64,000 nt of DNA from an uncultured Bdellovibrionales bacterium (GTDB lineage Bacteria > Patescibacteriota > Minisyncoccia > Moranbacterales > UBA1568), in the NCBI GenBank assembly GCA_964624415.1, contig CAZUWR010000001.1:3855-67854 (forward strand). Reading direction: 5' to 3'. Positions 161 to 37,552 of this stretch are shown piece by piece; positions within the stretch are counted from its first letter, which is position 1; each line of letters opens with the position of its first letter. The notes beneath the pieces were generated by a model, which was not told where the DNA came from, made no database searches, and saw only the letters and a program-made list of their open reading frames with translations. The translations under genes and the position numbers were made by a program.

Positions 161-1261
161 ATGCAATTCGCTCAACTCGACACAATACCACAGGTCGTCA
201 ACGTGCTCAAGGTGCTTTCCACCGGATTAATCGCTTTCATATTAGCTTTCGCTCTCACGCCATTATGGACGCATATTCTCTACAAATATAAAATCGGCAT
301 CAAGATCAAGAGTACGGATGTGAACGGTGAGAAATTGACCTATGTGAGCCAGTTGCATGCAAGCAAGTCAGGTACGCCGACAATGGGCGGGGTTATCGTG
401 TGGTTTTCCGTGTTCGTTCTGGCCTTCGCGTCACATTTTTTATTCCCCCTTATTGCCGAGTGGACGGGTAATAATGGTTGGGCGCGATTGGATTTTCTCC
501 GTCGTTCGCAGGTATGGCTGCCTTTGTTTGTGTTGGTGATGGGTGGGTTGCTGGGACTGCTCGATGACTGGATGAGCGTGCGCGGTATCGGCAAGAACAA
601 AGGTGGTGGTATGCGTTTCGCGATGCGCTTTTGGTGGCTCATCACCATAGCTTCCGCCGGCGCGTGGTGGTTTTATGCCAAGCTTGATTGGAATATACTC
701 CATATTCCCGGAGTGGGTGATTTTACCATCGGTTGGTGGTATATTCCTTTGTTTATTTTCGTCATCTTGTTTTCAGCGATTTCCTCCAATGAAACAGATG
801 GTTTGGATGGCCTCAATGGTGGCGTACTTTTGATCGCCTTCGCTTCATTCGCTCTCATCGCCTTTGCGCAGAATAAGATGGATCTTGCTTCGTTTTGCGT
901 GGCGACGACCGGGGCGCTCCTGGCCTTTTTGTGGTTCAATATCTATCCGGCGCGGTTTTTTATGGGAGACACCGGGGCGATGGCGCTCGGGACGACGCTG
1001 GGCGTGGTAGCGATGCTCACCAATTCCGTGATTGTGCTTTTCATTATTGTGTTTATCTATGTCTTGGAGTCGGGGAGCGCGGTTATTCAGCTCACCAGTA
1101 AACGGTTTTTCCATAAGAAGGTTTTTCTGGCAGCACCGTTGCACCATCATTTCGAGGCTCTGGGATGGCCAGAGCCCAAGGTGGTGATGCGCGCGTGGAT
1201 ATTTACGATTGTGACCGCGATGATCGGGGTTATTATCGGCATCCTCGGCATGGGTCGCTAG
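161..1261 (+). CDS. mraY: phospho-N-acetylmuramoyl-pentapeptide transferase (MraY)
   Basis: 366-aa polytopic membrane ORF carrying the MraY signature motifs NETDGLDGL and GDTGAMALG. Confidence 0.9.
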   Translation: MQFAQLDTIPQVVNVLKVLSTGLIAFILAFALTPLWTHILYKYKIGIKIKSTDVNGEKLTYVSQLHASKSGTPTMGGVIVWFSVFVLAFASHFLFPLIAEWTGNNGWARLDFLRRSQVWLPLFVLVMGGLLGLLDDWMSVRGIGKNKGGGMRFAMRFWWLITIASAGAWWFYAKLDWNILHIPGVGDFTIGWWYIPLFIFVILFSAISSNETDGLDGLNGGVLLIAFASFALIAFAQNKMDLASFCVATTGALLAFLWFNIYPARFFMGDTGAMALGTTLGVVAMLTNSVIVLFIIVFIYVLESGSAVIQLTSKRFFHKKVFLAAPLHHHFEALGWPEPKVVMRAWIFTIVTAMIGVIIGILGMGR

Positions 1262-1303
1262 AAAGAGGATTCTTCTATTTGGTACATTATTATAAAAATC
1301 TAT

Positions 1304-2359
1304 ATGAAATTACGAAATATCGGAGAGGTTAAAGAAATTGCGGGCAAGAAGATATTGGTGCGGGTGGATTTCAATATCGAGCTTGATGCCGCGCAGAATG
1401 CTGAAGAGCAATTCAAACTCGATGTCGCTAAAAAAACCATAGATTATCTTTTCAAGCGCGGCGCGGCAGCCATTGCTGTGGCGAGTCACTTCGGTCGTCC
1501 GGATGGTAAGCGTGATGAAAAGTTCTCTTTGCAGCCGCTTACGGATGATGCGCAGCGTGCCTTGGGTCGCCCGGTACGGTTCGTCGCCGATTGTCTCGGT
1601 GAGAATGTTGTCAAAGCGCTGGACGCTCTTCCAGTAGGAGAAGTGCTCCTCTTGGAAAACCTTCGTTTTTACGCCGGTGAGGAGGCGAATGATGTCGATT
1701 TCGCTGTTCGGCTTGCTGGACCGTTCGATATGTTCGTCAATGAAGCCTTCAGTGTCTGTCATCGCGCACATGCTTCCGTCGTAGCAATCACGCAGTACCT
1801 TCCCAGCTATGCCGGCTTCCGTTTGATTGAAGAAGTGGCGCAGTTGGAAACGCTGCGTGTCAGTCCGCAGCACCCGGCGGTCGCGATTATCGGGGGTGCC
1901 AAGATCGAAACGAAACTTCCGATTATCAGGATGTTTGAAAAATTATACGATTCAGTGTTGGTGGGTGGTATGATTGCTAATGAGGCAATCGATCAAAAAA
2001 TAGAGTTCGATAGCAATGTCATTTTGCCGCAGGATTTTGTCGGCGAGGGGCGTTTGGATATCGGAGCGAACACTATCGCGCAGTTTGCGGAAGTGATTGC
2101 GACCGCGAAGACTATCGTATGGAATGGCCCGATGGGTAAGTTTGAAGAGAAGCCCTACGATGCCGGTACGCATGGCGTCTTGCAGGCTATTTTGACCAAC
2201 AAGGATGCGCATGTGGTAATCGGCGGCGGAGAATCGCTCGCGGCGGTGGGACGGGAAAATGCCATCGATCGCATTGGTTTCGTGTCCACAGGAGGAGGAG
2301 CGATGCTGGACTTTTTCGGAGGTGTGACGATGCCGGGACTGGATGTATTGAAGGCTTAG
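1304..2359 (+). CDS. pgk: phosphoglycerate kinase
   Basis: 351-aa ORF; N-terminal KILVRVDFN substrate motif and C-terminal GPMGKFE...GGGES motifs typical of PGK. Confidence 0.9.
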   Translation: MKLRNIGEVKEIAGKKILVRVDFNIELDAAQNAEEQFKLDVAKKTIDYLFKRGAAAIAVASHFGRPDGKRDEKFSLQPLTDDAQRALGRPVRFVADCLGENVVKALDALPVGEVLLLENLRFYAGEEANDVDFAVRLAGPFDMFVNEAFSVCHRAHASVVAITQYLPSYAGFRLIEEVAQLETLRVSPQHPAVAIIGGAKIETKLPIIRMFEKLYDSVLVGGMIANEAIDQKIEFDSNVILPQDFVGEGRLDIGANTIAQFAEVIATAKTIVWNGPMGKFEEKPYDAGTHGVLQAILTNKDAHVVIGGGESLAAVGRENAIDRIGFVSTGGGAMLDFFGGVTMPGLDVLKA

Positions 2360-3192: not shown

Positions 3193-4458
3193 ATGTCAAA
3201 GGTACAGACGATTGTAGGACGAGAGATCCTTGATTCACGAGGGAACCCGACCGTGGAAGTGGCAGTAACACTGGAAAGCGGCGTGTCCGCGGTGGCGATG
3301 GTGCCCTCCGGAGCCTCGACCGGCGAGTGGGAGGCAGTGGAGCTGCGTGATGGTGATGCCAAACGCTATGGCGGCAAGGGTGTTTTGAACGCCGTGAAGA
3401 ATGTGAATACGGAATTGGCGCAAGCGGTTATCGGTATGGACGCTTCCGAACAACGAGCGATCGATGAGGCGATGATTGCCGTGGATGGAACGGAAAATAA
3501 AGGACGATTGGGTGCTAACGCCATCTTGGGTGTTTCTTTGGCCGTGGCTCGCGCACATGCCCTCGATTCCAAACAAACCCTGTATACCCATATCAATACG
3601 CTGCTGGCAAATGAGAGCAAAGTTGCTTTGCCGGTGCCGATGTTTAATGTCCTCAATGGCGGTATGCACAGTGACTCCGGTCTTGCGATTCAGGAATTTA
3701 AGATTGTGCCGATCGGTATCAAGCCGTACGCTGAGCAGTTGCGTGCCGGGAGCGAAATCTTTCATGCGCTGAAAAAAATCCTCGAAAAGGACGGTTTTGT
3801 AACCAGTGTGGGCGATGAAGGCGGATTCGCGCCAAGACTCCAGAGCAATGCGCAGGCCTTCGAAGTCATCATCCAGGCTATCAAAGCGGCCGGTTATGAG
3901 CCGGGCACACAGGTGGCGCTCGGCATCGATGCAGCAGCCAGCTCTTTTTACAACGATACCGAAGATCAGTATGTGCTCAAGCCCGAAGGTGTGAATATGT
4001 CTCGTGAGAGTCTGATCGCAATGTATCGTGAGTGGATGAGTAAGTACTTCATCATTTCCATCGAGGATGGTCTGCACGAGAATGACTGGGAAGGCTGGGC
4101 TACGATGAAGGAGAAACTGGAGAAGGAAAATGCCGACATAATGCTTATCGGTGATGATCTACTCGTGACCAATCCGAAACGTTTGGCCCGTGCTATCGAG
4201 GAGAAGTCTTGCAATGCGGTGCTTATCAAGCTCAATCAGATCGGTACGCTGAGCGAAACACTTGAGTGTATCCGTATGGCCCAAGCGAACAACTATCGCG
4301 TGGTGGTGTCGCATCGCTCCGGTGAGACAACGGATGATTTTATCGCCGATCTGGCCGCAGGTACCGGCGCCGGCTTCATCAAAACCGGATCGCTGTCCCG
4401 AGGAGAGCGCCTGGCGAAGTACAATCGCTTGCTCGCGATCGAAACGGAAATCGCGTAA
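3193..4458 (+). CDS. eno: enolase
   Basis: 421-aa ORF with the SHRSGETED-type motif (SHRSGETTD) and conserved enolase N-terminus; AGGAG SD upstream. Confidence 0.95.
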   Translation: MSKVQTIVGREILDSRGNPTVEVAVTLESGVSAVAMVPSGASTGEWEAVELRDGDAKRYGGKGVLNAVKNVNTELAQAVIGMDASEQRAIDEAMIAVDGTENKGRLGANAILGVSLAVARAHALDSKQTLYTHINTLLANESKVALPVPMFNVLNGGMHSDSGLAIQEFKIVPIGIKPYAEQLRAGSEIFHALKKILEKDGFVTSVGDEGGFAPRLQSNAQAFEVIIQAIKAAGYEPGTQVALGIDAAASSFYNDTEDQYVLKPEGVNMSRESLIAMYREWMSKYFIISIEDGLHENDWEGWATMKEKLEKENADIMLIGDDLLVTNPKRLARAIEEKSCNAVLIKLNQIGTLSETLECIRMAQANNYRVVVSHRSGETTDDFIADLAAGTGAGFIKTGSLSRGERLAKYNRLLAIETEIA

Positions 4459-4486
4459 GCATACCGTATCGGAATCGGTTTCGAAT

Positions 4487-4520
4487 AAGACCCGGGAGCA
4501 ACATATGTTCCCGGGTCTTT
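4487..4520. terminator. bidirectional intrinsic terminator between eno and the convergent gene
   Basis: 9-bp GC-rich stem GACCCGGGA/TCCCGGGTC followed by a T run; A run upstream. Confidence 0.5.
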
Positions 4521-4546
4521 AGTTATTTCGATGGTTGTAATGCTAG

Positions 4547-5299
4547 TTAATAGCGAGTGCCTTTTGAACGGAGTTGTTGAGTAAAATAAGCGCGTAATTC
4601 GCCATAGGTTTCGATTGTTTTTGGAAATGTTATCCGCAAACTGCATCCCGGGCAGTGCACTATTTTTGATATACCATTTTCATAGCAAAAAATCAATTCG
4701 GAACCGCAGCCATGATTTTTATGAATCCCTAATACTTTCCCTTTTTTTGGCAGAGGATTCTCATCGCGTGTGTGATCAAATATGCCAGGAAGAAATCGAT
4801 CCGGGGGATTGTTCTTGTCCGGAGGAATTTCCGTCAGACAATCGCCCTCGGATGTGATGCGTATGAGTGGTAACGGTTGCGCACGCAGGATCTCTTCTTG
4901 TGTGCGTGATGCCAACACCTCATTGAGATTTTCTGTGCTGGTTTTTCGGGACACATCTGCCAGGATGCTGAACAGGCAATCCAGCCAACCCGTCATCCAT
5001 GCAGCGTTATCTCCTCTTCCGACACGCAGTATTATTTCATCGGAATACCTTGTTTGTGAAGTAAGAACGCGGAAGGGACAATGCGTGTTCACGGTAGCGT
5101 CCTCATAATCATATCCTCGTATTTCATCCATTTTTCCGACTTCGACATGATTCACATCGAAGCCTGCTGATTGCACGACCTCTAGGAGCAATGCCAGTAC
5201 TTCTTTGGAATAGGTATTCCCCTCTGAGGGACGTGTAAAGAATTTCGCGTAAAATTCTGCGAAACGTTTTGCAATATCGGTAACATTTTGAGTGTTCAT
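4547..5299 (-). CDS. hypothetical protein with C-terminal Cys cluster (HGCG...C...HCPGC)
   Basis: start set at the internal ATG (MNTQNV) preceded by a GGAGGG SD; the track ORF extends to 5476 with no SD; no recognisable family. Confidence 0.45.
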   Translation of the reverse strand: MNTQNVTDIAKRFAEFYAKFFTRPSEGNTYSKEVLALLLEVVQSAGFDVNHVEVGKMDEIRGYDYEDATVNTHCPFRVLTSQTRYSDEIILRVGRGDNAAWMTGWLDCLFSILADVSRKTSTENLNEVLASRTQEEILRAQPLPLIRITSEGDCLTEIPPDKNNPPDRFLPGIFDHTRDENPLPKKGKVLGIHKNHGCGSELIFCYENGISKIVHCPGCSLRITFPKTIETYGELRAYFTQQLRSKGTRY

Positions 5300-8350: not shown

Positions 8351-9331
8351 ATGAAACTTTTAGTCACGGGCGGAGCGGGATTTATCGGGTCCAATTTCAT
8401 CCACTATATCCTCAAGAAATATCCCGAGTACAGCGTGGTCAATCTGGATGCTTTGACGTATGCAGGCAATCCGGAAAACGTGCGGGAGTGGGAAGGTGAC
8501 CCGCGGTATACTTTCGTTAAGGGGGATATTTGCGATGCAGAGCTTGTGGAAAAATTGGTGCAAGGTGTCGATGCTATCGTACACTTTGCTGCCGAGTCGC
8601 ATGTCGATCGCTCTATCTTGGATGCGCATTCATTCGTGCAGACCAATGTGATTGGAACGCAAACGCTTTTGGATGCCGCTCTGCACAATGACAAGAAGCG
8701 TTTTCATCATGTCTCGACCGACGAGGTCTTCGGTGCGCTCAAACCAGAAGATGAGCCGTTTTCAGAGAAGACACCCTATGACCCGCGCAGCCCGTACAGC
8801 GCTTCGAAGGCCGGATCCGATCATCTGGTGCGGGCGTATTTCCACACCCACGGACTACCGGTGACGATTTCCAATTGTTCCAATAATTATGGCCCGTATC
8901 ATTTTCCGGAAAAGCTGATACCACTGGCAATTACTAATCTAATGGAAGGGAAGCAGGTGCCGGTCTATGGCGACGGGATGCAGGTGCGCGATTGGCTTTT
9001 TGTCGAGGATCACTGCCGTGCCATCGATTTGATCGTGCATCAGGGGGCGCTCGGTGAGACCTACTGTGTGGGTGGGGCATCGGAGCGCGCCAATATCGAT
9101 ATCGTGAAGCAGCTGCTCAAGCTTATGGGCAAGGATGAAACGAGTATTGAGTATGTGACCGACCGGCTCGGGCATGATCGGCGCTATGCTATCGATTTTT
9201 CAAAAATCAAAAAAGAACTCGGATGGGAGCCGACCGTGACCCTCGAAGATGGACTCAAGCAGACCGTTGAGTGGTTTACAGAGAACGAAGGCTGGTGGCA
9301 GCGCATCAAGTCGGGGGAGTATAGAAAATAA
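8351..9331 (+). CDS. rfbB: dTDP-glucose 4,6-dehydratase
   Basis: MKLLVTGGAGFIGSNF Rossmann N-terminus; YxxxK catalytic dyad of the SDR family; 326 aa. Confidence 0.9.
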   Translation: MKLLVTGGAGFIGSNFIHYILKKYPEYSVVNLDALTYAGNPENVREWEGDPRYTFVKGDICDAELVEKLVQGVDAIVHFAAESHVDRSILDAHSFVQTNVIGTQTLLDAALHNDKKRFHHVSTDEVFGALKPEDEPFSEKTPYDPRSPYSASKAGSDHLVRAYFHTHGLPVTISNCSNNYGPYHFPEKLIPLAITNLMEGKQVPVYGDGMQVRDWLFVEDHCRAIDLIVHQGALGETYCVGGASERANIDIVKQLLKLMGKDETSIEYVTDRLGHDRRYAIDFSKIKKELGWEPTVTLEDGLKQTVEWFTENEGWWQRIKSGEYRK

Positions 9332-32359: not shown

Positions 32360-32635
32360 ATGGAAAAGAAAAATGTGGGAAAATGCGATCGAATGATACG
32401 CATCGTAGTCGGTATCGTATTGATTGTTCTGGCATTCAATGTGCTCAAAGGATTATTCTCAGCGCTCGCTTATCTGGTGGCGGCAATCGTTTTGGTGACC
32501 GGCTTGGCAAGGTACTGCCCGATGTATAGGGTTTTTGGTTGTGACTCAACTAAGTGCTGCTGCAAGATGTGCGGATCGTGCAAGAATGAGAATAAAGATG
32601 TATCGGTAGAGGAAGAGAAGAAAATGCAGGAGTAA
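32360..32635 (+). CDS. DUF2892 (YgaP-like) membrane protein with Cys-rich tail
   Basis: GKCDRMIRIVVG...LVTGLARYCPMYRVFG matches the YgaP transmembrane-domain motif; CCCKMCGSC tail. Confidence 0.45.
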   Translation: MEKKNVGKCDRMIRIVVGIVLIVLAFNVLKGLFSALAYLVAAIVLVTGLARYCPMYRVFGCDSTKCCCKMCGSCKNENKDVSVEEEKKMQE

Positions 32636-32795
32636 TGTGTCTGATATAAGTAACCATCTATAATCTTTTCGTTTTTTGCTTTTGTATAGTGTTCTTTCGA
32701 ACTGCCGGGTCAAAGACGAAAGGTGAGAAAAAATACTATCAAAAGCCAAAAAACCAAGAGGTAGAAGATTTTGAACAGTTGCTAAGAGTATTATT

Positions 32796-33146
32796 ATGAA
32801 AAAATACACGGGCAGTTGCCACTGCGGAGCAGTTCGATATGAGGTTGAAACGGATCTGGCAAAGGTTATCTCCTGCAATTGTTCGCATTGTCATAAGAAA
32901 GGATTTCTGCTTCATTTTGTGCCTGCGACGCAGTTCATCCTGCTTTCCGGGGAAGAGAATCTGACGGATTATCGGTTCAATACCGAAAAGATTGCGCACT
33001 TGTTTTGCAAGACATGCGGGGTGCAGTCATTTGGAAGAGGCGCGGGCAAGGATGGCGTGCCTATGGTGGCGGTAAACGCGCGTTGTCTGGATAATGTAGA
33101 TACCGACACACTGGAAGTCACTAAGGTGGATGGCAAGAGTATGTGA
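32796..33146 (+). CDS. GFA-family (glutathione-dependent formaldehyde-activating / CENP-V-like) zinc protein
   Basis: cysteine pattern CHCGAV...CNCSHC...CKTCG characteristic of the GFA domain. Confidence 0.65.
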   Translation: MKKYTGSCHCGAVRYEVETDLAKVISCNCSHCHKKGFLLHFVPATQFILLSGEENLTDYRFNTEKIAHLFCKTCGVQSFGRGAGKDGVPMVAVNARCLDNVDTDTLEVTKVDGKSM

Positions 33147-33148
33147 CC

Positions 33149-33244
33149 TTGACAAAAGTCAATTATGGGTGTATAAAGAAATGTCTTATCAGTGAGATGC
33201 CTTACTGATCGAAAGACCAATGAAATTGAAATGAGGAGAAAAAG
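33149..33244 (+). promoter_or_regulatory. promoter-plus-leader cassette, copy A (consensus sigma-70 promoter, hairpin, strong SD)
   Basis: TTGACA, 17 nt, TATAAA, then ATCAGTGA...ACTGAT hairpin, GAAAGACCAATGAA and a GAGGAG SD; about 80 percent identical to 34172..34261. Confidence 0.5.
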
Positions 33245-33415
33245 ATGGCCCTGTTACCGTATCCCATTGAGTGTCTTATTTGTAAATACATGAAAATGGA
33301 GGATCCTTGCCCTAGGTGTAAGGGCGAGCGTTCAGAAGATCGAGAACCTTCTGATGTCGAGATACAAAAACAACTCTTTGAACAGGATGTTGAGGAGGTT
33401 GCACAAAATTGTTAA
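33245..33415 (+). CDS. small 4-Cys zinc-ribbon protein (56 aa) with acidic C-terminus
   Basis: CLIC and CPRC pairs; GAGGAG SD 7 nt upstream; below the ORF-track cutoff; driven by cassette copy A. Confidence 0.4.
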   Translation: MALLPYPIECLICKYMKMEDPCPRCKGERSEDREPSDVEIQKQLFEQDVEEVAQNC

Positions 33416-33457
33416 AAGGGTTCGCGTCGGAAGGTATATGCCATTCGACGCGCTTTT

Positions 33458-34168
33458 TTATTCCCGGATACTGATGGAATCGAGATAGGGAAGCATTGTT
33501 TTTCGGATGGCATGCAGGTCGAGCTTATGTGTACCGATACGCTCGCGGAGGGTTTCGTCGGCAATTTTGAGCGGGCGGAAAGCCTGGAGGACATAGCTTT
33601 CGGCGCCGGCGATCCACTGCGCGATATCGAGGAAATCTTCGGGCGTGTGGATGCTGGGGACGACGGTGGTACGAAATTCATACGGCATACCGGAGGACAT
33701 CAGCAGTTTCACGGACTTCTCGAAGCGTTTGATGGGGATGGATGTGACACCGGATGCGAGCGGATACTTTTTTTGGCTGTGCTTGATATCCATCGCCCAA
33801 AAGTCCACCAAACCCGTGGCGAGGAGCGCTTCCACCTTGTCGGGGAAGATGCCGTTGGTATCGAGCTTGACGAGAAAGCCAAGGTCTTTGACACGGCGGA
33901 TGAAGTCGAGCAGGTCGGCGTGCAAGGTGGGCTCGCCGCCGGTAATGACCACGCCCTCGAGCAGTCCTTGGCGGGTCGCGAGAAATTCGAAAAACTCCTC
34001 TTCGCGATTGACGGTGAACAATTCCGAGGGACTGCCCGGGACGGCAGTGATGAGCTCGGGGTTGTGGCAATAGGGGCAACGAAGCGCGCAACCGGGCGTG
34101 AACACGATAGTGGCCAAGTGATCAGGGTAGTCGATAAGGGTGAGCGGTTCGAAGCCAGCGATACGCAT
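33458..34168 (-). CDS. nrdG: anaerobic ribonucleoside-triphosphate reductase activating protein (radical SAM)
   Basis: GCALRCPYCHNPEL radical-SAM cluster motif of the NrdG/PflA activase type; adjacent to nrdD. Confidence 0.75.
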   Translation of the reverse strand: MRIAGFEPLTLIDYPDHLATIVFTPGCALRCPYCHNPELITAVPGSPSELFTVNREEEFFEFLATRQGLLEGVVITGGEPTLHADLLDFIRRVKDLGFLVKLDTNGIFPDKVEALLATGLVDFWAMDIKHSQKKYPLASGVTSIPIKRFEKSVKLLMSSGMPYEFRTTVVPSIHTPEDFLDIAQWIAGAESYVLQAFRPLKIADETLRERIGTHKLDLHAIRKTMLPYLDSISIRE

Positions 34169-34171
34169 AGG

Positions 34172-34261
34172 ATTGACAAAAGTCGGTTACGGGTGTATAA
34201 TACGGTGTCTTATCAGTGAGGAATCTGACTGAGGAAAGACCAATGAACGAGGAGAGTACAA
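34172..34261 (+). promoter_or_regulatory. promoter-plus-leader cassette, copy B
   Basis: TTGACA, 17 nt, TATAAT, then CAGTGAGG...CTGACTGAGG hairpin, GAAAGACCAATGAA and a GAGGAG SD; paralogue of 33149..33244. Confidence 0.5.
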
Positions 34262-34630
34262 ATGAATATAGCTTTTTTACAAGTACCAGAGATTGACGAT
34301 TTGGCCGCTTTTGAGGATTGGCTCAAAGGAGAGGGGTATTTTCTCTCACAGATAGCTATAGAAGCCACTGTGAAAGAAATGATAGAGATCGAGCATACAC
34401 CGTGTATCGTCGTGTCAGTAGATGATATTAGTTTAGATCCTAGTTTACTAGTGCTAGACTGTCACAATCAAAGATTTATTATTTGGAGCACTCTCGAAAA
34501 TGAACTTGCGAATATTTCTGATATGTTTGGCTACTCTTATTGGGTGGCGGTGAATGTGGAAAATCAAGAACAGGATCCTTTAACTGAATCAGATGATAAG
34601 GATGATTTGGAAAATTATCTTTGGAATTGA
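34262..34630 (+). CDS. hypothetical acidic protein (122 aa), AT-rich, lying between nrdD and nrdG on the opposite strand
   Basis: ORF with a strong SD driven by cassette copy B; no family recognised. Confidence 0.4.
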   Translation: MNIAFLQVPEIDDLAAFEDWLKGEGYFLSQIAIEATVKEMIEIEHTPCIVVSVDDISLDPSLLVLDCHNQRFIIWSTLENELANISDMFGYSYWVAVNVENQEQDPLTESDDKDDLENYLWN

Positions 34631-34686
34631 CGCCCGCGCGCCGGAGAGAGGTTAGCAACCTTTCTCCCGGCGCTGTTTTTTTATCC

Positions 34687-36900
34687 TCACATCCGTGTCG
34701 CTTCCGCAGTGGCGAGAGAGATGTCCGAGACATACTCATTGCGATCGCCATACTCGGCGCGCTTGCCATTGTTCCACTGCTCGACGGGGCGGATATAGCC
34801 CACGACGCGTGAGTAGACTTCGGCTGGGCGCTCGCAGTGCGGGCAGATCGGTTGTTCGCCGGTCAAGTAGCCGTGCTCGGCGCAGATGCTGAAGGTCGGT
34901 GTGAGGGTGAAGTATGGCAGACTGTATTTTTCGGTGATAAGCTTGACCAGTTTTTTGGCTGTTTCGATGCCGTTGATTTTCTCTCCCAAAAATCCGTGTA
35001 GCACCGTGCCTCCCGTGTAGAGGGTTTGGAGGCCGTCTTGCAGATCGAGCGCTTCGAAGATATCGCTCGTGTGCCCCACGGGAATATGCGATGAGTTGGT
35101 GTAGTATGGGGCGGTTTGCTCGGATTGTACGGAAGCCTCATTGGCCACGATAATGTCTGGGTGGAATTTCTTGTCCAAAAGAGCGAGGCGATAAGCGGTG
35201 CCTTCGGCCGGTGTGGCTTCGAGGTTGTAGAGATTGCCGGTTTCTTTCTGATAGCCTTCCAGACGCTTGCGCATATGCGTGAGGATTTTTTTCGCGAAGG
35301 CTTGGCCTTTGGCGGTAGTGATATCGACTTGCGCGCCGAGGAGATTTTGGATGGCTTCGTTGGTGCCGACCAAACCGATAGTGCCGAAGTGATTTTGCCA
35401 GTAGGTGCCGAAGCGTTCCTTGATAGCGGAGAGGTAGAATTTGGTGTAGGGGTACAGACCCTTGTCCGTGAGGCGCTCGACGACGGTGCGCTTCATCTCA
35501 AGGCTTGTCTTGGCAAGGTCCATCTGATGGTCGAGTCGCGCGAAGAAGTCTTTTTCACTGGAAGCAAGATAGCCCAGGCGAGGAAGGTTGATGGTCACCA
35601 CACCAATGGAACCGGTGAGGGGATTGGCGCCGAAGAGTCCGCCACCGCGCTTGCGCAGTTCGCGATTATCGAGGCGCAATCGACAACACATACTGCGTGC
35701 ATCATCGGGATGCATATCCGAATTGACGAAGTTGGCGAAGTATGGGATGCCGTATTTGACCGTCATCTCCCACACGGGATTGAAGCTCTTGTCGTCCCAA
35801 TCAAAGTCCTTGGTGATATTGTAGGTCGGAATCGGGAAAGTGAAGATGCGTCCCGAGGCATCGCCTTCTGTCATCACTTCGGCGAAGGCGCGGTTGATCA
35901 TCGCCATTTCTTTGGGAAAATCGGCGTAGGTTTCTTTCTGGACTTCGCCTCCGCGGACGACATGTTCTTTGGCGAGCATCGCGGGCGCGGTGATGTCCAT
36001 CGTGATATTGGAAAACGGTGTCTGGAAGCCGACGCGCGTGGCGACATTCATATTGAACACGAAGGATTGGATGTCTTGCTTGACCTGCGCGTAACTGAGT
36101 TTGTCGTAGCGGATGAACGGGGCGAGCAGGGTGTCGAAACTCGAGAAGGCCTGCGCTCCGGCCACTTCGCCTTGGAGAGTGTAGATGAAATTGACCATCT
36201 GCCCGAGGATGGCGCTGAAGTGTTTGGCGGGTTTGCACGCCACCTTGCCTGGGACACCGGTGAAGCCGCGACGGATAAGGTCTTGCAGATCCCAACCGCA
36301 ACAGTATGCGGCGACGAGCTGCAAATCGTGGATGTGCAGGTCGCCCGATTCGTGCGCTTCGCGGATATCGGCCGTGTAGATGCGATTCATCCAGTACTTG
36401 GCACTGATAGCAGACGAAACATAGTTGTTCAGTCCCTGGAGAGAATAAGCCATATTGGCATTTTCTTTGACCTTCCAGTCGAGATTGCCGAGATAGTTGT
36501 CGATGAGCGAGACAGCATTGTCCAGAGCGGTTTCCGCTTCGCGTGCTTGACGCCTTTGCTCGCGGTAGAGGATGTAGGCTTTGGCGGTTTCTTCGAAGTC
36601 CAGTATCATCAGGACTTTTTCGGTGCAGTCCTGTACATTCTCGATAGTCGGCACAAAGGATTTCTTGGTGGCTTTGTGAAAGGTGCGCGCCTGTTTGTCT
36701 AGGAGTGCGACGACTTTTTTTGAAATACGTCGCGCATCCTTAAGAGATCCTTCCTGAGTAGCTTTGAAAGCCTTGCTGACGGCTTGGGTTATTTTGTCCG
36801 CTTTGAAAGAAACTCTGCGGCCGTCGCGTTTGATGAGGTGTTTGACACAGACGGCTTTGGACGAAACAGTGGCGGACGGCGTGGCGATAGTGCGTGGCAT
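34687..36900 (-). CDS. nrdD: anaerobic ribonucleoside-triphosphate reductase (class III)
   Basis: N-terminal ATP cone (VIKRDGRRVSF), C-terminal CPHC zinc site and glycyl-radical motif SRVVGYIRP; start at MPRTIA (the track extends to 36960). Confidence 0.85.
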   Translation of the reverse strand: MPRTIATPSATVSSKAVCVKHLIKRDGRRVSFKADKITQAVSKAFKATQEGSLKDARRISKKVVALLDKQARTFHKATKKSFVPTIENVQDCTEKVLMILDFEETAKAYILYREQRRQAREAETALDNAVSLIDNYLGNLDWKVKENANMAYSLQGLNNYVSSAISAKYWMNRIYTADIREAHESGDLHIHDLQLVAAYCCGWDLQDLIRRGFTGVPGKVACKPAKHFSAILGQMVNFIYTLQGEVAGAQAFSSFDTLLAPFIRYDKLSYAQVKQDIQSFVFNMNVATRVGFQTPFSNITMDITAPAMLAKEHVVRGGEVQKETYADFPKEMAMINRAFAEVMTEGDASGRIFTFPIPTYNITKDFDWDDKSFNPVWEMTVKYGIPYFANFVNSDMHPDDARSMCCRLRLDNRELRKRGGGLFGANPLTGSIGVVTINLPRLGYLASSEKDFFARLDHQMDLAKTSLEMKRTVVERLTDKGLYPYTKFYLSAIKERFGTYWQNHFGTIGLVGTNEAIQNLLGAQVDITTAKGQAFAKKILTHMRKRLEGYQKETGNLYNLEATPAEGTAYRLALLDKKFHPDIIVANEASVQSEQTAPYYTNSSHIPVGHTSDIFEALDLQDGLQTLYTGGTVLHGFLGEKINGIETAKKLVKLITEKYSLPYFTLTPTFSICAEHGYLTGEQPICPHCERPAEVYSRVVGYIRPVEQWNNGKRAEYGDRNEYVSDISLATAEATRM

Positions 36901-37111
36901 AATTGTGTTTTTATTAGGCAACCTGATGAATAAATTCCCCCAATAAACATTTTTCAACACGACGTCTTGTGGTAAAAAATGAAGAAACGCTACGACAGGT
37001 AGTGGTTTCTGACTCTATTATAGTCCTCTTGAGAAACTGCGCAAGTTTGGCTTTGCAGGGCTTAGGGTGTAAGATGGAAGGGAACTTCGTAACCATTTTT
37101 GTATCAATCAT

Positions 37112-37552
37112 ATGGAGATAAAAGAACTCGGACACATCGTTTTGTACGTGACCAATTTGGCTCGTTTGGCCGATTTTTACCGAGATACCCTAGGGTTTCG
37201 GGAAATCTCCCGCGACCGGCAGACAGCGCTTTTTTCCTCCGGTCGTACGCATCACGAGTTGCTCTTGATCGAAATCGGGGGCGCGCCGAAAAGCAAGCAC
37301 GGCGTCGAGCCCGGACTCTACCATATCGGGCTGAAAATAGGGGATAGCACGGAGAGTGTGAAGCAGGCCTACCAGGAATTGACAGAAAAGGGCGTGACCA
37401 TCGTCGGATCCGCCGATCACAGTGTTACTCACAGCCTCTATATTCTCGATCCTGACGGCAATGAACTGGAACTGTATGCTGATGTGTCCGATGAGTGGAA
37501 AACGAACCCCAAGGCCATTCTGAAACCGACGCAGTACCTTTCTTTGGAATAA
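37112..37552 (+). CDS. VOC-family protein (glyoxalase/bleomycin-resistance/dioxygenase fold)
   Basis: GHIVLYVTNLARLADFYRDTLGF N-terminus typical of the VOC beta-alpha-beta-beta-beta module. Confidence 0.65.
   Translation: MEIKELGHIVLYVTNLARLADFYRDTLGFREISRDRQTALFSSGRTHHELLLIEIGGAPKSKHGVEPGLYHIGLKIGDSTESVKQAYQELTEKGVTIVGSADHSVTHSLYILDPDGNELELYADVSDEWKTNPKAILKPTQYLSLE

Follow-up and report, generated by a model that had tools for sequence, protein, structure and literature searches.

The genes for the class III ribonucleotide reductase (RNR), nrdD, and for its activase, nrdG, usually form a tight operon. This is not the case in a stretch of 64,000 nucleotides (here called the window) from contig CAZUWR010000001.1 of assembly GCA_964624415.1. 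Here the two genes are separated by a small open reading frame (ORF) on the opposite strand, preceded by a cassette of promoter, leader and Shine-Dalgarno (SD) sequence, and a second copy of the cassette lies on the other side of nrdG in front of another small ORF. The present text deals with these cassettes (copies A and B) and the ORFs that follow them (ORF A and ORF B). Since the tight operon is the usual arrangement, a clade in which an opposite-strand interruption persists constitutes a natural experiment, and it bears on the regulation of an oxygen-sensitive enzyme and its activase in very small genomes.

Several described systems are relevant for comparison. Excludons, described in Listeria, are overlapping transcription units on opposite strands. 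A stabilising hairpin at the 5' terminus is a well-known mRNA device, and examples are found in the 5' untranslated region (UTR) of ompA in Escherichia coli and in the ermC and aprE leaders of Bacillus subtilis. The GrcA/YfiD proteins are stand-alone glycyl-radical 'spare parts'. The nrd loci of T4-like phages are reported to host mobile insertions, namely free-standing homing endonuclease genes and introns (PMC2988022).

The original prediction for this locus, made by a model from the DNA letters, proposed an inserted module exerting antisense control of the RNR or supplying an accessory factor for it; judged from the sequence, both roles are possible. On balance, the analysis below favours a clade-specific promoter-leader-SD module from which small nrd-linked proteins are probably expressed together, with one-way terminators as insulation.

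Anatomy of the cassette

The nrd genes, the two cassettes and the ORFs that follow them are placed as follows.

33149-33177, plus strand: promoter of copy A; TTGACA, 17-nt spacer, TATAAA; 11 of 12 consensus positions (sequence read and promoter pattern search)
33183-33217, plus strand: leader stem-loop of copy A; GUCUU/AAGAC and an upper stem of 8-9 bp (RNA fold -14.4 kcal/mol, z = -2.5)
33211-33238, plus strand: conserved GAAAGACCAATGAA tract of copy A, A-rich linker and GAGGAG SD at 33233-33238 (sequence read, exact-match search, covariance model)
33245-33415, plus strand: ORF A, 56 amino acids (aa), CxxC-x8-CxxC, acidic tail (ORF list)
33458-34168, minus strand: nrdG, class III RNR activase (NCBIfam TIGR02495, 202.6 bits, cut-off 131; Radical_SAM E = 1.8e-22)
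34173-34201, plus strand: promoter of copy B; TTGACA, 17-nt spacer, TATAAT; 12 of 12 consensus positions (promoter scan)
34207-34240, plus strand: leader stem-loop of copy B (RNA fold; covariance model match 74 bits)
34234-34254, plus strand: conserved GAAAGACCAATGAA tract of copy B and GAGGAG SD at 34249-34254 (sequence read, exact-match search, covariance model)
34262-34630, plus strand: ORF B, 122 aa, very acidic (ORF list; small clade-specific family)
34687-36900, minus strand: nrdD, class III RNR with ATP-cone (PRK08270, 1063.6 bits, cut-off 548; PF13597 E = 7e-194; PF03477)

The profile matches agree with the predicted identity and minus-strand orientation of the two nrd genes, and the 56-aa and 122-aa ORFs are present where they had been predicted. 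Copy A (33149-33244, plus strand) and copy B (34173-34261, plus strand) show a mean column identity of 81% when aligned, in keeping with the predicted pair of plus-strand cassettes of about 95 nt and about 80% identity. Each was also said to have a TTGACA-17-TATAAT promoter; this holds for copy B, while the -10 box of copy A is TATAAA. The 3' part of the spacer reads TTAYGGGTG in both copies and is found just before the -10 box. The stem-loop begins 5 nt past the -10 box in both, that is, at about +1. It is followed by GAAAGACCAAUGAA and then the SD, and the distance from GAGGAG to the ATG is 6-7 nt in both copies. A hairpin and a GAGGAG SD, which had been predicted for each cassette, are thus both found. 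The consensus leader structure has 13 pairs with 98% of the cells paired, and the SD is unsequestered in the predicted leader folds.

Read in this way, the module would consist of a near-consensus sigma-70-type promoter, a 13-bp 5' stem-loop, an A-rich single-stranded GAAAGACYAAY tract and a strong GAGGAG SD, and the transcript would start directly with the stem-loop. The -35 box of copy B begins 4 nt from the nrdG ATG, so the placement of this copy directly upstream of the nrdG start was correct. A reading of the sequence revealed neither an SD nor a recognisable promoter belonging to nrdG itself.

Antisense to nrdG there is a shadow ORF of 235 aa (33512-34219, plus strand), and the gene calls of several public assemblies (Logan, ENA) list an equivalent ORF of 234-259 aa in place of nrdG. 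The exact NrdG sequence is not in the protein collection searched. At this locus, gene calls in public data are thus unreliable, which is a practical caution.

Occurrence of the cassette

Within the window the cassette is confined to its two copies. The 28-nt promoter pattern occurs exactly twice, while 0.00 occurrences are expected from shuffled sequences, and only two TTGACA-N15-19-TAWNAT sites were found, one of them being the promoter of copy B. The leader 14-mers GTCTTATCAGTGAG and GAAAGACCAATGAA are each confined to the two cassettes, and the leader covariance model gives 74 bits for one copy and 61 bits for the other, no other site exceeding 14 bits. When all JGI metagenome contigs were scanned with the leader pattern two contigs were recovered, both nrd-linked, while none was found among the IMG/VR viral contigs. 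Outside the cassette-bearing relatives, a search of about 725 kb of nrdG neighbourhoods from other species with this model was without a hit. A cmscan of 32500-37500 against Rfam with E-values up to 10 gave only noise, with no hit on either cassette, and a search of the loci of the relatives at the gathering threshold yielded one tRNA and nothing else.

These scans support a specific nrd-linked module, not a generic promoter, and agree with the original prediction, which had named a common promoter found at many unrelated loci as the outcome that would speak against it. That the cassette is a generic strong promoter, or a dispersed repeat resembling a miniature inverted-repeat transposable element (MITE), which has ended up beside nrdG by chance is now very improbable and largely refuted. 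The promoter hexamers do conform to the consensus, and a 5' hairpin just past the -10 box is found also at the nrdD promoter and in the relative L002 (see below). However, the only two copies in 64 kb both flank nrdG, the metagenome copies are exclusively nrd-linked, and neither viral contigs nor other nrdG neighbourhoods contain any. No terminal or flanking repeats were found around either unit in the window, although 29-nt inverted repeats in another lineage (L089) are a caveat.

Conservation in related genomes

The nearest genomes are metagenome-assembled genomes (MAGs) of Candidatus Moraniibacteriota, which belong to the Candidate Phyla Radiation (CPR, Patescibacteria). The cassette together with a homologue of ORF B is found in the lineage of the window and in three others, always adjoining nrdG and on the opposite strand. 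The relatives are arranged as follows.

L003 (MAG STB_169), NrdG 76% identical to that of the window: the cassette abuts the nrdG ATG and is followed by a 154-aa ORF-B homologue, a terminator and the 3' end of nrdD
L083-87 and L091 (five samples), NrdG 80%: as L003, with a 101-aa ORF-B homologue and a 71-aa four-cysteine (4-Cys) ORF in one operon
L088-90 and L092, contig ending inside nrdG: cassette and 139-aa ORF-B homologue 3' of nrdG, convergent with it
L002, closest relative by NrdD and NrdG, NrdG 87%: keeps AGGATTGACAAAA beside the nrdG ATG

The cassette thus abuts the nrdG ATG in the window, in L003 and in L083-87. The operon of L083, with its ORF-B homologue and 4-Cys ORF, has a parallel in the window, where ORF B is accompanied by ORF A. 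In L088-90 and L092 the module has the position which copy A and ORF A have in the window, and in L088 and L089 it lies downstream of nrdG, behind a terminator. A position in the gap between nrdD and nrdG is therefore not obligatory.

Two sets of repeats were seen in L089, which belongs to the P0010 lineage. Inverted repeats of 29 nt that are 97% complementary (1-29 and 740-768) bracket the cassette and ORF-B unit, and there is a 22-nt direct repeat (19-40 and 706-727). Each arm carries a palindrome resembling a repetitive extragenic palindromic (REP) element or a terminal inverted repeat (TIR). These repeats may account for the move of the module to the 3' side of nrdG.

The cassettes of the different lineages are 74-86% identical, and the hairpin part 75-91%. 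For comparison, when nrdG of the window, L003 and L083 is aligned, identity is 47-57% at four-fold sites and 75% over all nucleotides of the gene. In the four cassettes linked to ORF B 49 of 74 columns are invariant, and copy A retains 44 of these 49. These alignments give strong grounds for assuming purifying selection on the cassette. Of the 25 free columns, 15 are the same in copy A and copy B, while the other cassettes agree with copy A in 11-13. A duplication within this lineage is therefore the simplest explanation for the two copies, though not a recent one. The view that the cassettes are a recent, lineage-specific insertion cannot be upheld, as cassette and ORF-B homologue occur together in four lineages or more, and the divergence of these at nrdG four-fold sites is close to saturation.

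The leader hairpin

The changes observed in the stem of the leader hairpin still pair on the plus strand, as G.U and A-U, while their minus-strand equivalents would be mismatches (C.A). In the loop the sequence is variable, and the length differs by 1 nt. A plus-strand RNA element is favoured because the hairpin is located at about +1, because the stem changes pair on this strand and because the loop varies in length. Such an element would act either as a 5'-terminal stabiliser of the mRNA or as a specific protein-binding site. Recognition by a specific factor is suggested by the near-invariant stem sequence, which goes beyond what a purely structural stabiliser would need.

The main alternative to the RNA reading is a DNA operator overlapping +1. 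The inverted repeat 3' of the -10 box would then be bound by a dimeric repressor, and the two copies would make up a two-promoter regulon. Such an operator occupies a classical repressor position, it is the stem sequence itself that is conserved, with no compensatory covariation, and the spacer motif TTAYGGGTG is conserved too. However, the half-site distance shifts by 1 nt in L003, the stem changes are of the kind that pair in plus-strand RNA, and the locus has no linked gene that would be a candidate for the regulator. As an account of the module a repressor operator is thus rather unlikely.

ORF A and ORF B

The original prediction made expression and conservation of the small ORFs a test of its proposal. 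With regard to conservation this is borne out for ORF B, which has 22 invariant columns in the alignment of four homologues, and not for ORF A, which is an orphan among 5.8 billion proteins, being the sole member of its cluster. Besides the window, only one contig has the exact sequences of both ORFs, and this is the same sequence as assembled in Logan. A word-index protein search with ORF B, ORF A or the 4-Cys ORF of L083, which is an orphan like ORF A, returned only the query in each case. A HMMER search with ORF B against 1.84 billion representatives gave two true relatives, the rest being biased matches in long repetitive proteins, and the ORF-B profile found no further member at E <= 10 in other nrdG neighbourhoods. 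The homologues are 46% (P0006), 34-36% (P0010) and 38% (L003 4442-4906) identical to ORF B. The invariant columns include W20, W75 and a YWVAV motif, and the length differences are found only in loops and tails. Judging from this pattern, ORF B is a real, conserved protein-coding gene of a tiny, fast-evolving family.

Neither ORF A, ORF B, their relatives nor the ORF in the gap of L002 matches any family in Pfam, PHROG, NCBIfam or PADLOC, and taken together with the Rfam results this means that the cassette and ORF B fit no RNA or protein family described in these collections. An AlphaFold2 model of ORF B, made from an alignment of three sequences, has a mean predicted local distance difference test (pLDDT) of 68 and a predicted template modelling score (pTM) of 0.56; this medium-confidence model has no meaningful fold neighbour, and the best match in a profile search of PDB has E = 1.6.

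A number of candidate identities were rejected. A phage origin of the small ORFs finds no match in PHROG, in a tblastn search of 50,697 phage records or, for the leader, in IMG/VR. No nuclease domain or motif was found in ORF A or ORF B (Pfam, PHROG), which speaks against homing endonucleases, and the lack of a match to any PADLOC model, also for the relatives and the L002 ORF, speaks against components of anti-phage defence. A degenerate thioredoxin fold was considered for ORF B on account of its beta-alpha pattern and a 'TPC' resembling a cis-Pro motif, but its comparison by hhalign with the nrd-linked glutaredoxin-like protein from the genome L009 gave a probability of only 0.07. ORF B has neither the CxxC or CxxS motif nor the thioredoxin-fold profile match of NrdH, glutaredoxins and thioredoxins. 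Nor does it appear to be a GrcA-like glycyl-radical spare part, as it lacks the RVxG[FWY] motif and has no invariant glycine in the C-terminal half. ORF A has the two CxxC knuckles of a zinc ribbon or rubredoxin, with no match above noise in Pfam, NCBIfam or PHROG. The spacing between the CxxC pairs is far longer in rubredoxins than in ORF A and there is no profile match, which speaks against a rubredoxin. Small zinc-ribbon ORFs do not appear to be general companions of nrdD and nrdG, as none was found in the other nrdG neighbourhoods examined.

Terminators and antisense layout

Two terminators follow the ORFs, and one further gene is needed to describe the 3' side of nrdG.

33424-33460, plus strand: terminator of the ORF A unit, hairpin and U6 (RNA fold -22 kcal/mol, z = -3.4)
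34638-34683, plus strand: terminator of the ORF B unit, 16-bp hairpin and U7 (RNA fold -27.2 kcal/mol, z = -4.5)
32796-33146, plus strand: GFA-family gene, given as context (Pfam PF04828 GFA, E = 6.2e-17)

Copy A, ORF A and the terminator are found in this order between the GFA gene and nrdG. Copy A had been placed directly after the nrdG stop codon and was thought to transcribe away from the 3' end of nrdG. Neither is the case: its -35 box begins 2 nt past the stop codon of the GFA gene, ORF A and the terminator intervene before nrdG, and its transcription is convergent on the 3' end of nrdG. The stop codon of nrdG falls within the overlap with the ORF A terminator, whose U-run on the minus strand is weaker and displaced. 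The hairpin of the ORF B terminator has no U-tract on the minus strand and is thus one-way. The same one-way design is found after the unit with the ORF-B homologue in L083 and L003. Terminators that act only on the plus strand would let little antisense RNA into the coding regions of nrdD and nrdG, while read-through from nrdD to nrdG on the minus strand would still be possible. To judge from their design, they look like insulation as much as interference.

The unit of copy B is wholly antisense to any nrdD-nrdG co-transcript, so that the layout agrees with the predicted antisense relation between the copy B mRNA and the junction of the two genes. Because nrdG has neither an SD nor a recognisable promoter of its own and the ORF B hairpin can terminate only on the plus strand, the simplest interpretation of the sequence is that transcription reaches nrdG from nrdD, reading through the strand antisense to ORF B. 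If so, polymerase collision and a duplex of about 470 bp would set the expression of ORF B and that of nrdG against each other. The layout thus makes antisense interference with nrdG plausible as a consequence.

It is another matter whether such interference is the selected function of the module, with head-on transcription and RNA duplex formation from copy B setting nrdG expression and the ORFs being secondary. In its favour, apart from the dependence of nrdG on nrdD read-through suggested by the features just described, each of the four lineages of the clade that have a gap has an antisense gene in it. These include L002, which has an unrelated ORF and yet keeps the TTGACA promoter and 5' hairpin in place. 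The leader is furthermore far better conserved than the ORF-B protein, and both copy A and the L088 module are opposite in strand to nrdG. Against it, ORF B shows protein-like conservation in four lineages, the module of L088 and L089 lies 3' of nrdG past a terminator and has no need of an overlap with the nrdD-nrdG junction, and strong plus-strand terminators halt antisense RNA before the coding sequence of either gene. The antisense orientation is also expected from simple tolerance, because a sense unit with a terminator would sever nrdG from the nrdD promoter. ORF B being, as far as its conservation tells, a conserved protein-coding gene, the locus is not simply an antisense device. The conservation of ORF B, the L088 arrangement and the insulating terminators weaken the claim that interference is the purpose of the module; antisense control is still plausible as an effect, and unlikely as the selected function.

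Turnover at the nrd site

Among the 89 loci where nrdG was located the two genes overlap or lie no more than 100 nt apart in 66. Gaps exceeding 300 nt are found in the Moraniibacteriota-like group and in three unrelated genomes (L005, L009 and L082), and in these three the gap genes are all co-oriented with the nrd genes. An opposite-strand occupant of the gap is thus particular to the clade studied here.

In L009 and L082 the gap appears to be filled with genes of nucleotide metabolism. The gap of L009 contains a glutaredoxin-like protein with a CPNC motif (1201-1452, plus strand; Pfam PF00462), while that of L082 has a 596-aa ORF (3209-4999, plus strand) which by eye looks like a candidate dCTP deaminase interrupted by an intein. 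L005 has a split nrdD plus other genes. In L004 and L005, both Moraniibacteriota-like genomes, NrdD is apparently encoded in two pieces. Its main part stops early, and the zinc ribbon and glycyl-radical motif (…TRVVGYIRPVEQWNKGK…) are found in another ORF of 83-112 aa (L004 4744-4995, L005 2839-3177, both plus strand). This ORF is found just upstream of nrdG in L004, whereas ORFs of 420 aa (HEAT-repeat) and 139 aa separate it from nrdG in L005.

It is also possible that the small ORFs of the window are cargo and the site a permissive slot. Both sides of nrdG would then be hot spots at which small genes particular to a lineage turn over, bringing a strong promoter along or using one already there; ORF A and ORF B would be unrelated to ribonucleotide reduction, and the linkage would stem from short-range rearrangement. 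This is conceivable, if somewhat doubtful. The contents of the flanks do differ, with a 186-aa membrane-anchored ORF in L002, a Host_attach/baeRF-like gene in L083 and the GFA gene and ORF A in the window; the GFA gene is absent from this position in L002, L003 and L083, and L004 and L005, too, have unrelated insertions at the nrd site. The GC content at third codon positions (GC3) is 0.37 in ORF A and 0.33 in ORF B versus 0.72 in nrdG and 0.68 in nrdD, neighbouring genes being at about 0.5. The proteins are moreover fast-evolving or orphans, and the L089 module is bracketed by inverted repeats. However, cassette and ORF B have stayed within about 300 nt of nrdG despite saturated synonymous sites and at least one relocation, the leader appears to be under strong purifying selection, the units of the window have no flanking terminal repeats, and no match to phages or defence systems was found.

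Neighbouring features

On the other side of nrdD a conserved upstream region was noted:

36901-37060, minus strand: upstream region of nrdD, given as context (four-lineage alignment, 75% mean column identity)

Along the minus strand (window 36901-37111) the order is TATAAT, a hairpin AGAAACCACUAC…GUAGCGUUUCU at about +1 (AGAAAC...GUUUCU in RNA letters), a CACAAGACG block and a GGGGGA block, the latter about 35 nt 5' of the nrdD ATG. In the four-lineage alignment no SD adjoins the annotated start of nrdD. The promoter of the divergent glyoxalase gene, GGGTGTAAGAT at 37065-37075, has the same form as the cassette, with GGGTG and a -10 box. A search for an operator common to this region and the cassette gave nothing convincing, the recurrence of GGTGTA(W)NAT at 37066 not being significant.

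In L083 a palindromic element of about 155 nt (9027-9182; -77.9 kcal/mol, z = -7.7) separates the promoter region of nrdD from the glyoxalase gene. It is called as a 56-aa ORF by one pipeline, is not present in the window and has no Rfam match at gathering thresholds; it looks like a MITE or a structured RNA. The window has a long AT-rich imperfect hairpin at 32664-32761, between a YgaP-like gene and the GFA gene, for which Rfam gave only sub-threshold noise. This hairpin marks the left edge of the stretch comprising the GFA gene, copy A and ORF A which is not present in L002.

Proposed function and significance

The two cassettes would, in the reading favoured here, be copies of one expression or regulatory module specific to a subclade of Moraniibacteria-like CPR bacteria. 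The module would drive small, fast-evolving, non-enzymatic proteins that are physically tied to nrdG, namely the acidic ORF-B family and, in two lineages, also differing small 4-Cys ORFs. ORF A and ORF B would be made from separate transcripts, and would be co-regulated because the module is present twice with the same promoter and leader. The small proteins would act on or with the class III RNR.

A number of points weigh against this proposal. Promoter activity, the start site and the co-transcription of nrdD and nrdG are predictions made from sequence. The conservation and covariation of the cassette are derived from the five distinct sequences known. The stems of the leader are almost invariant, with no double-sided and two one-sided changes (G.U, A-U), and the covariation score is reached by 413 of 500 shuffles, so that the structure is without statistical support. 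ORF B shows no tie by fold or family to the chemistry of ribonucleotide reduction. The proposed parallel between ORF A and the 4-Cys ORF of L083 is not one of homology: BLASTP gives E = 3, and 416 of 2000 shuffles score equally well. Finally, L002 has downstream of AGGATTGACAAAA a perfect 15-bp hairpin and its membrane-anchored ORF, both unrelated to those of the window, and the GFA gene and ORF A are missing from it. Because of this unrelated replacement ORF B must be dispensable for nrdD and nrdG function in the L002 lineage.

A bolder version of the proposal is that the leader is a new cis-regulatory RNA, a stem-loop that binds a specific protein or ligand and ties a mini-regulon of the ORF-B family and 4-Cys ORFs to the class III RNR, with ORF B as a new accessory or regulatory partner of NrdG or NrdD and the layout as an antisense toggle between expression of the activase and of the accessory protein; this must be regarded as quite unlikely. 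Should NrdG or NrdD be the target of ORF B or of the 4-Cys ORFs, these would count as new accessory factors of RNR, in hosts that are without most known electron-donor systems. Otherwise, the locus provides a transferable CPR promoter-leader-SD module and illustrates the turnover of small genes at a conserved site.

Comparison with known systems

The module resembles known devices, on the one hand the 5' stabilising hairpin and on the other a nested antisense gene or excludon. As in the stabilising 5' stem-loops mentioned above, the hairpin is located at the predicted +1, and next come an A-rich tract without structure and a strong SD that is not sequestered; the module differs in that the stem sequence is nearly invariant across the lineages. 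With excludons and other cis-antisense systems it shares a unit lying wholly antisense to the transcript path from nrdD to nrdG, which predicts mutual interference and a long duplex. Unlike in these, the antisense RNA would be a short protein-coding mRNA that ends at a terminator of its own rather than a long antisense UTR at the 5' or 3' end, and in one lineage the module lies outside the operon. The antisense layout is here known from the genome sequence.

A small acidic protein encoded between nrdD and nrdG also recalls the nrd-linked redoxins (NrdH and glutaredoxin- or thioredoxin-like proteins), of which L009 has a glutaredoxin-like one. ORF B differs from these by its opposite strand and by having no CxxC, no conserved cysteine and no Pfam match. 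Like GrcA/YfiD, it is a small acidic protein of about 120 aa whose gene is found beside those of a glycyl-radical enzyme and its activase, while in the ORF-B family the invariant motif is YWVAV and neither RVxG[FWY] nor any conserved glycine is present. The likeness to the nrd insertions reported from T4-like phages (PMC2988022) consists of small self-contained genes amid conserved neighbours, with occupants that turn over between close relatives. The window differs in having no nuclease domain, no phage context and an occupant that is conserved across lineages together with its leader.

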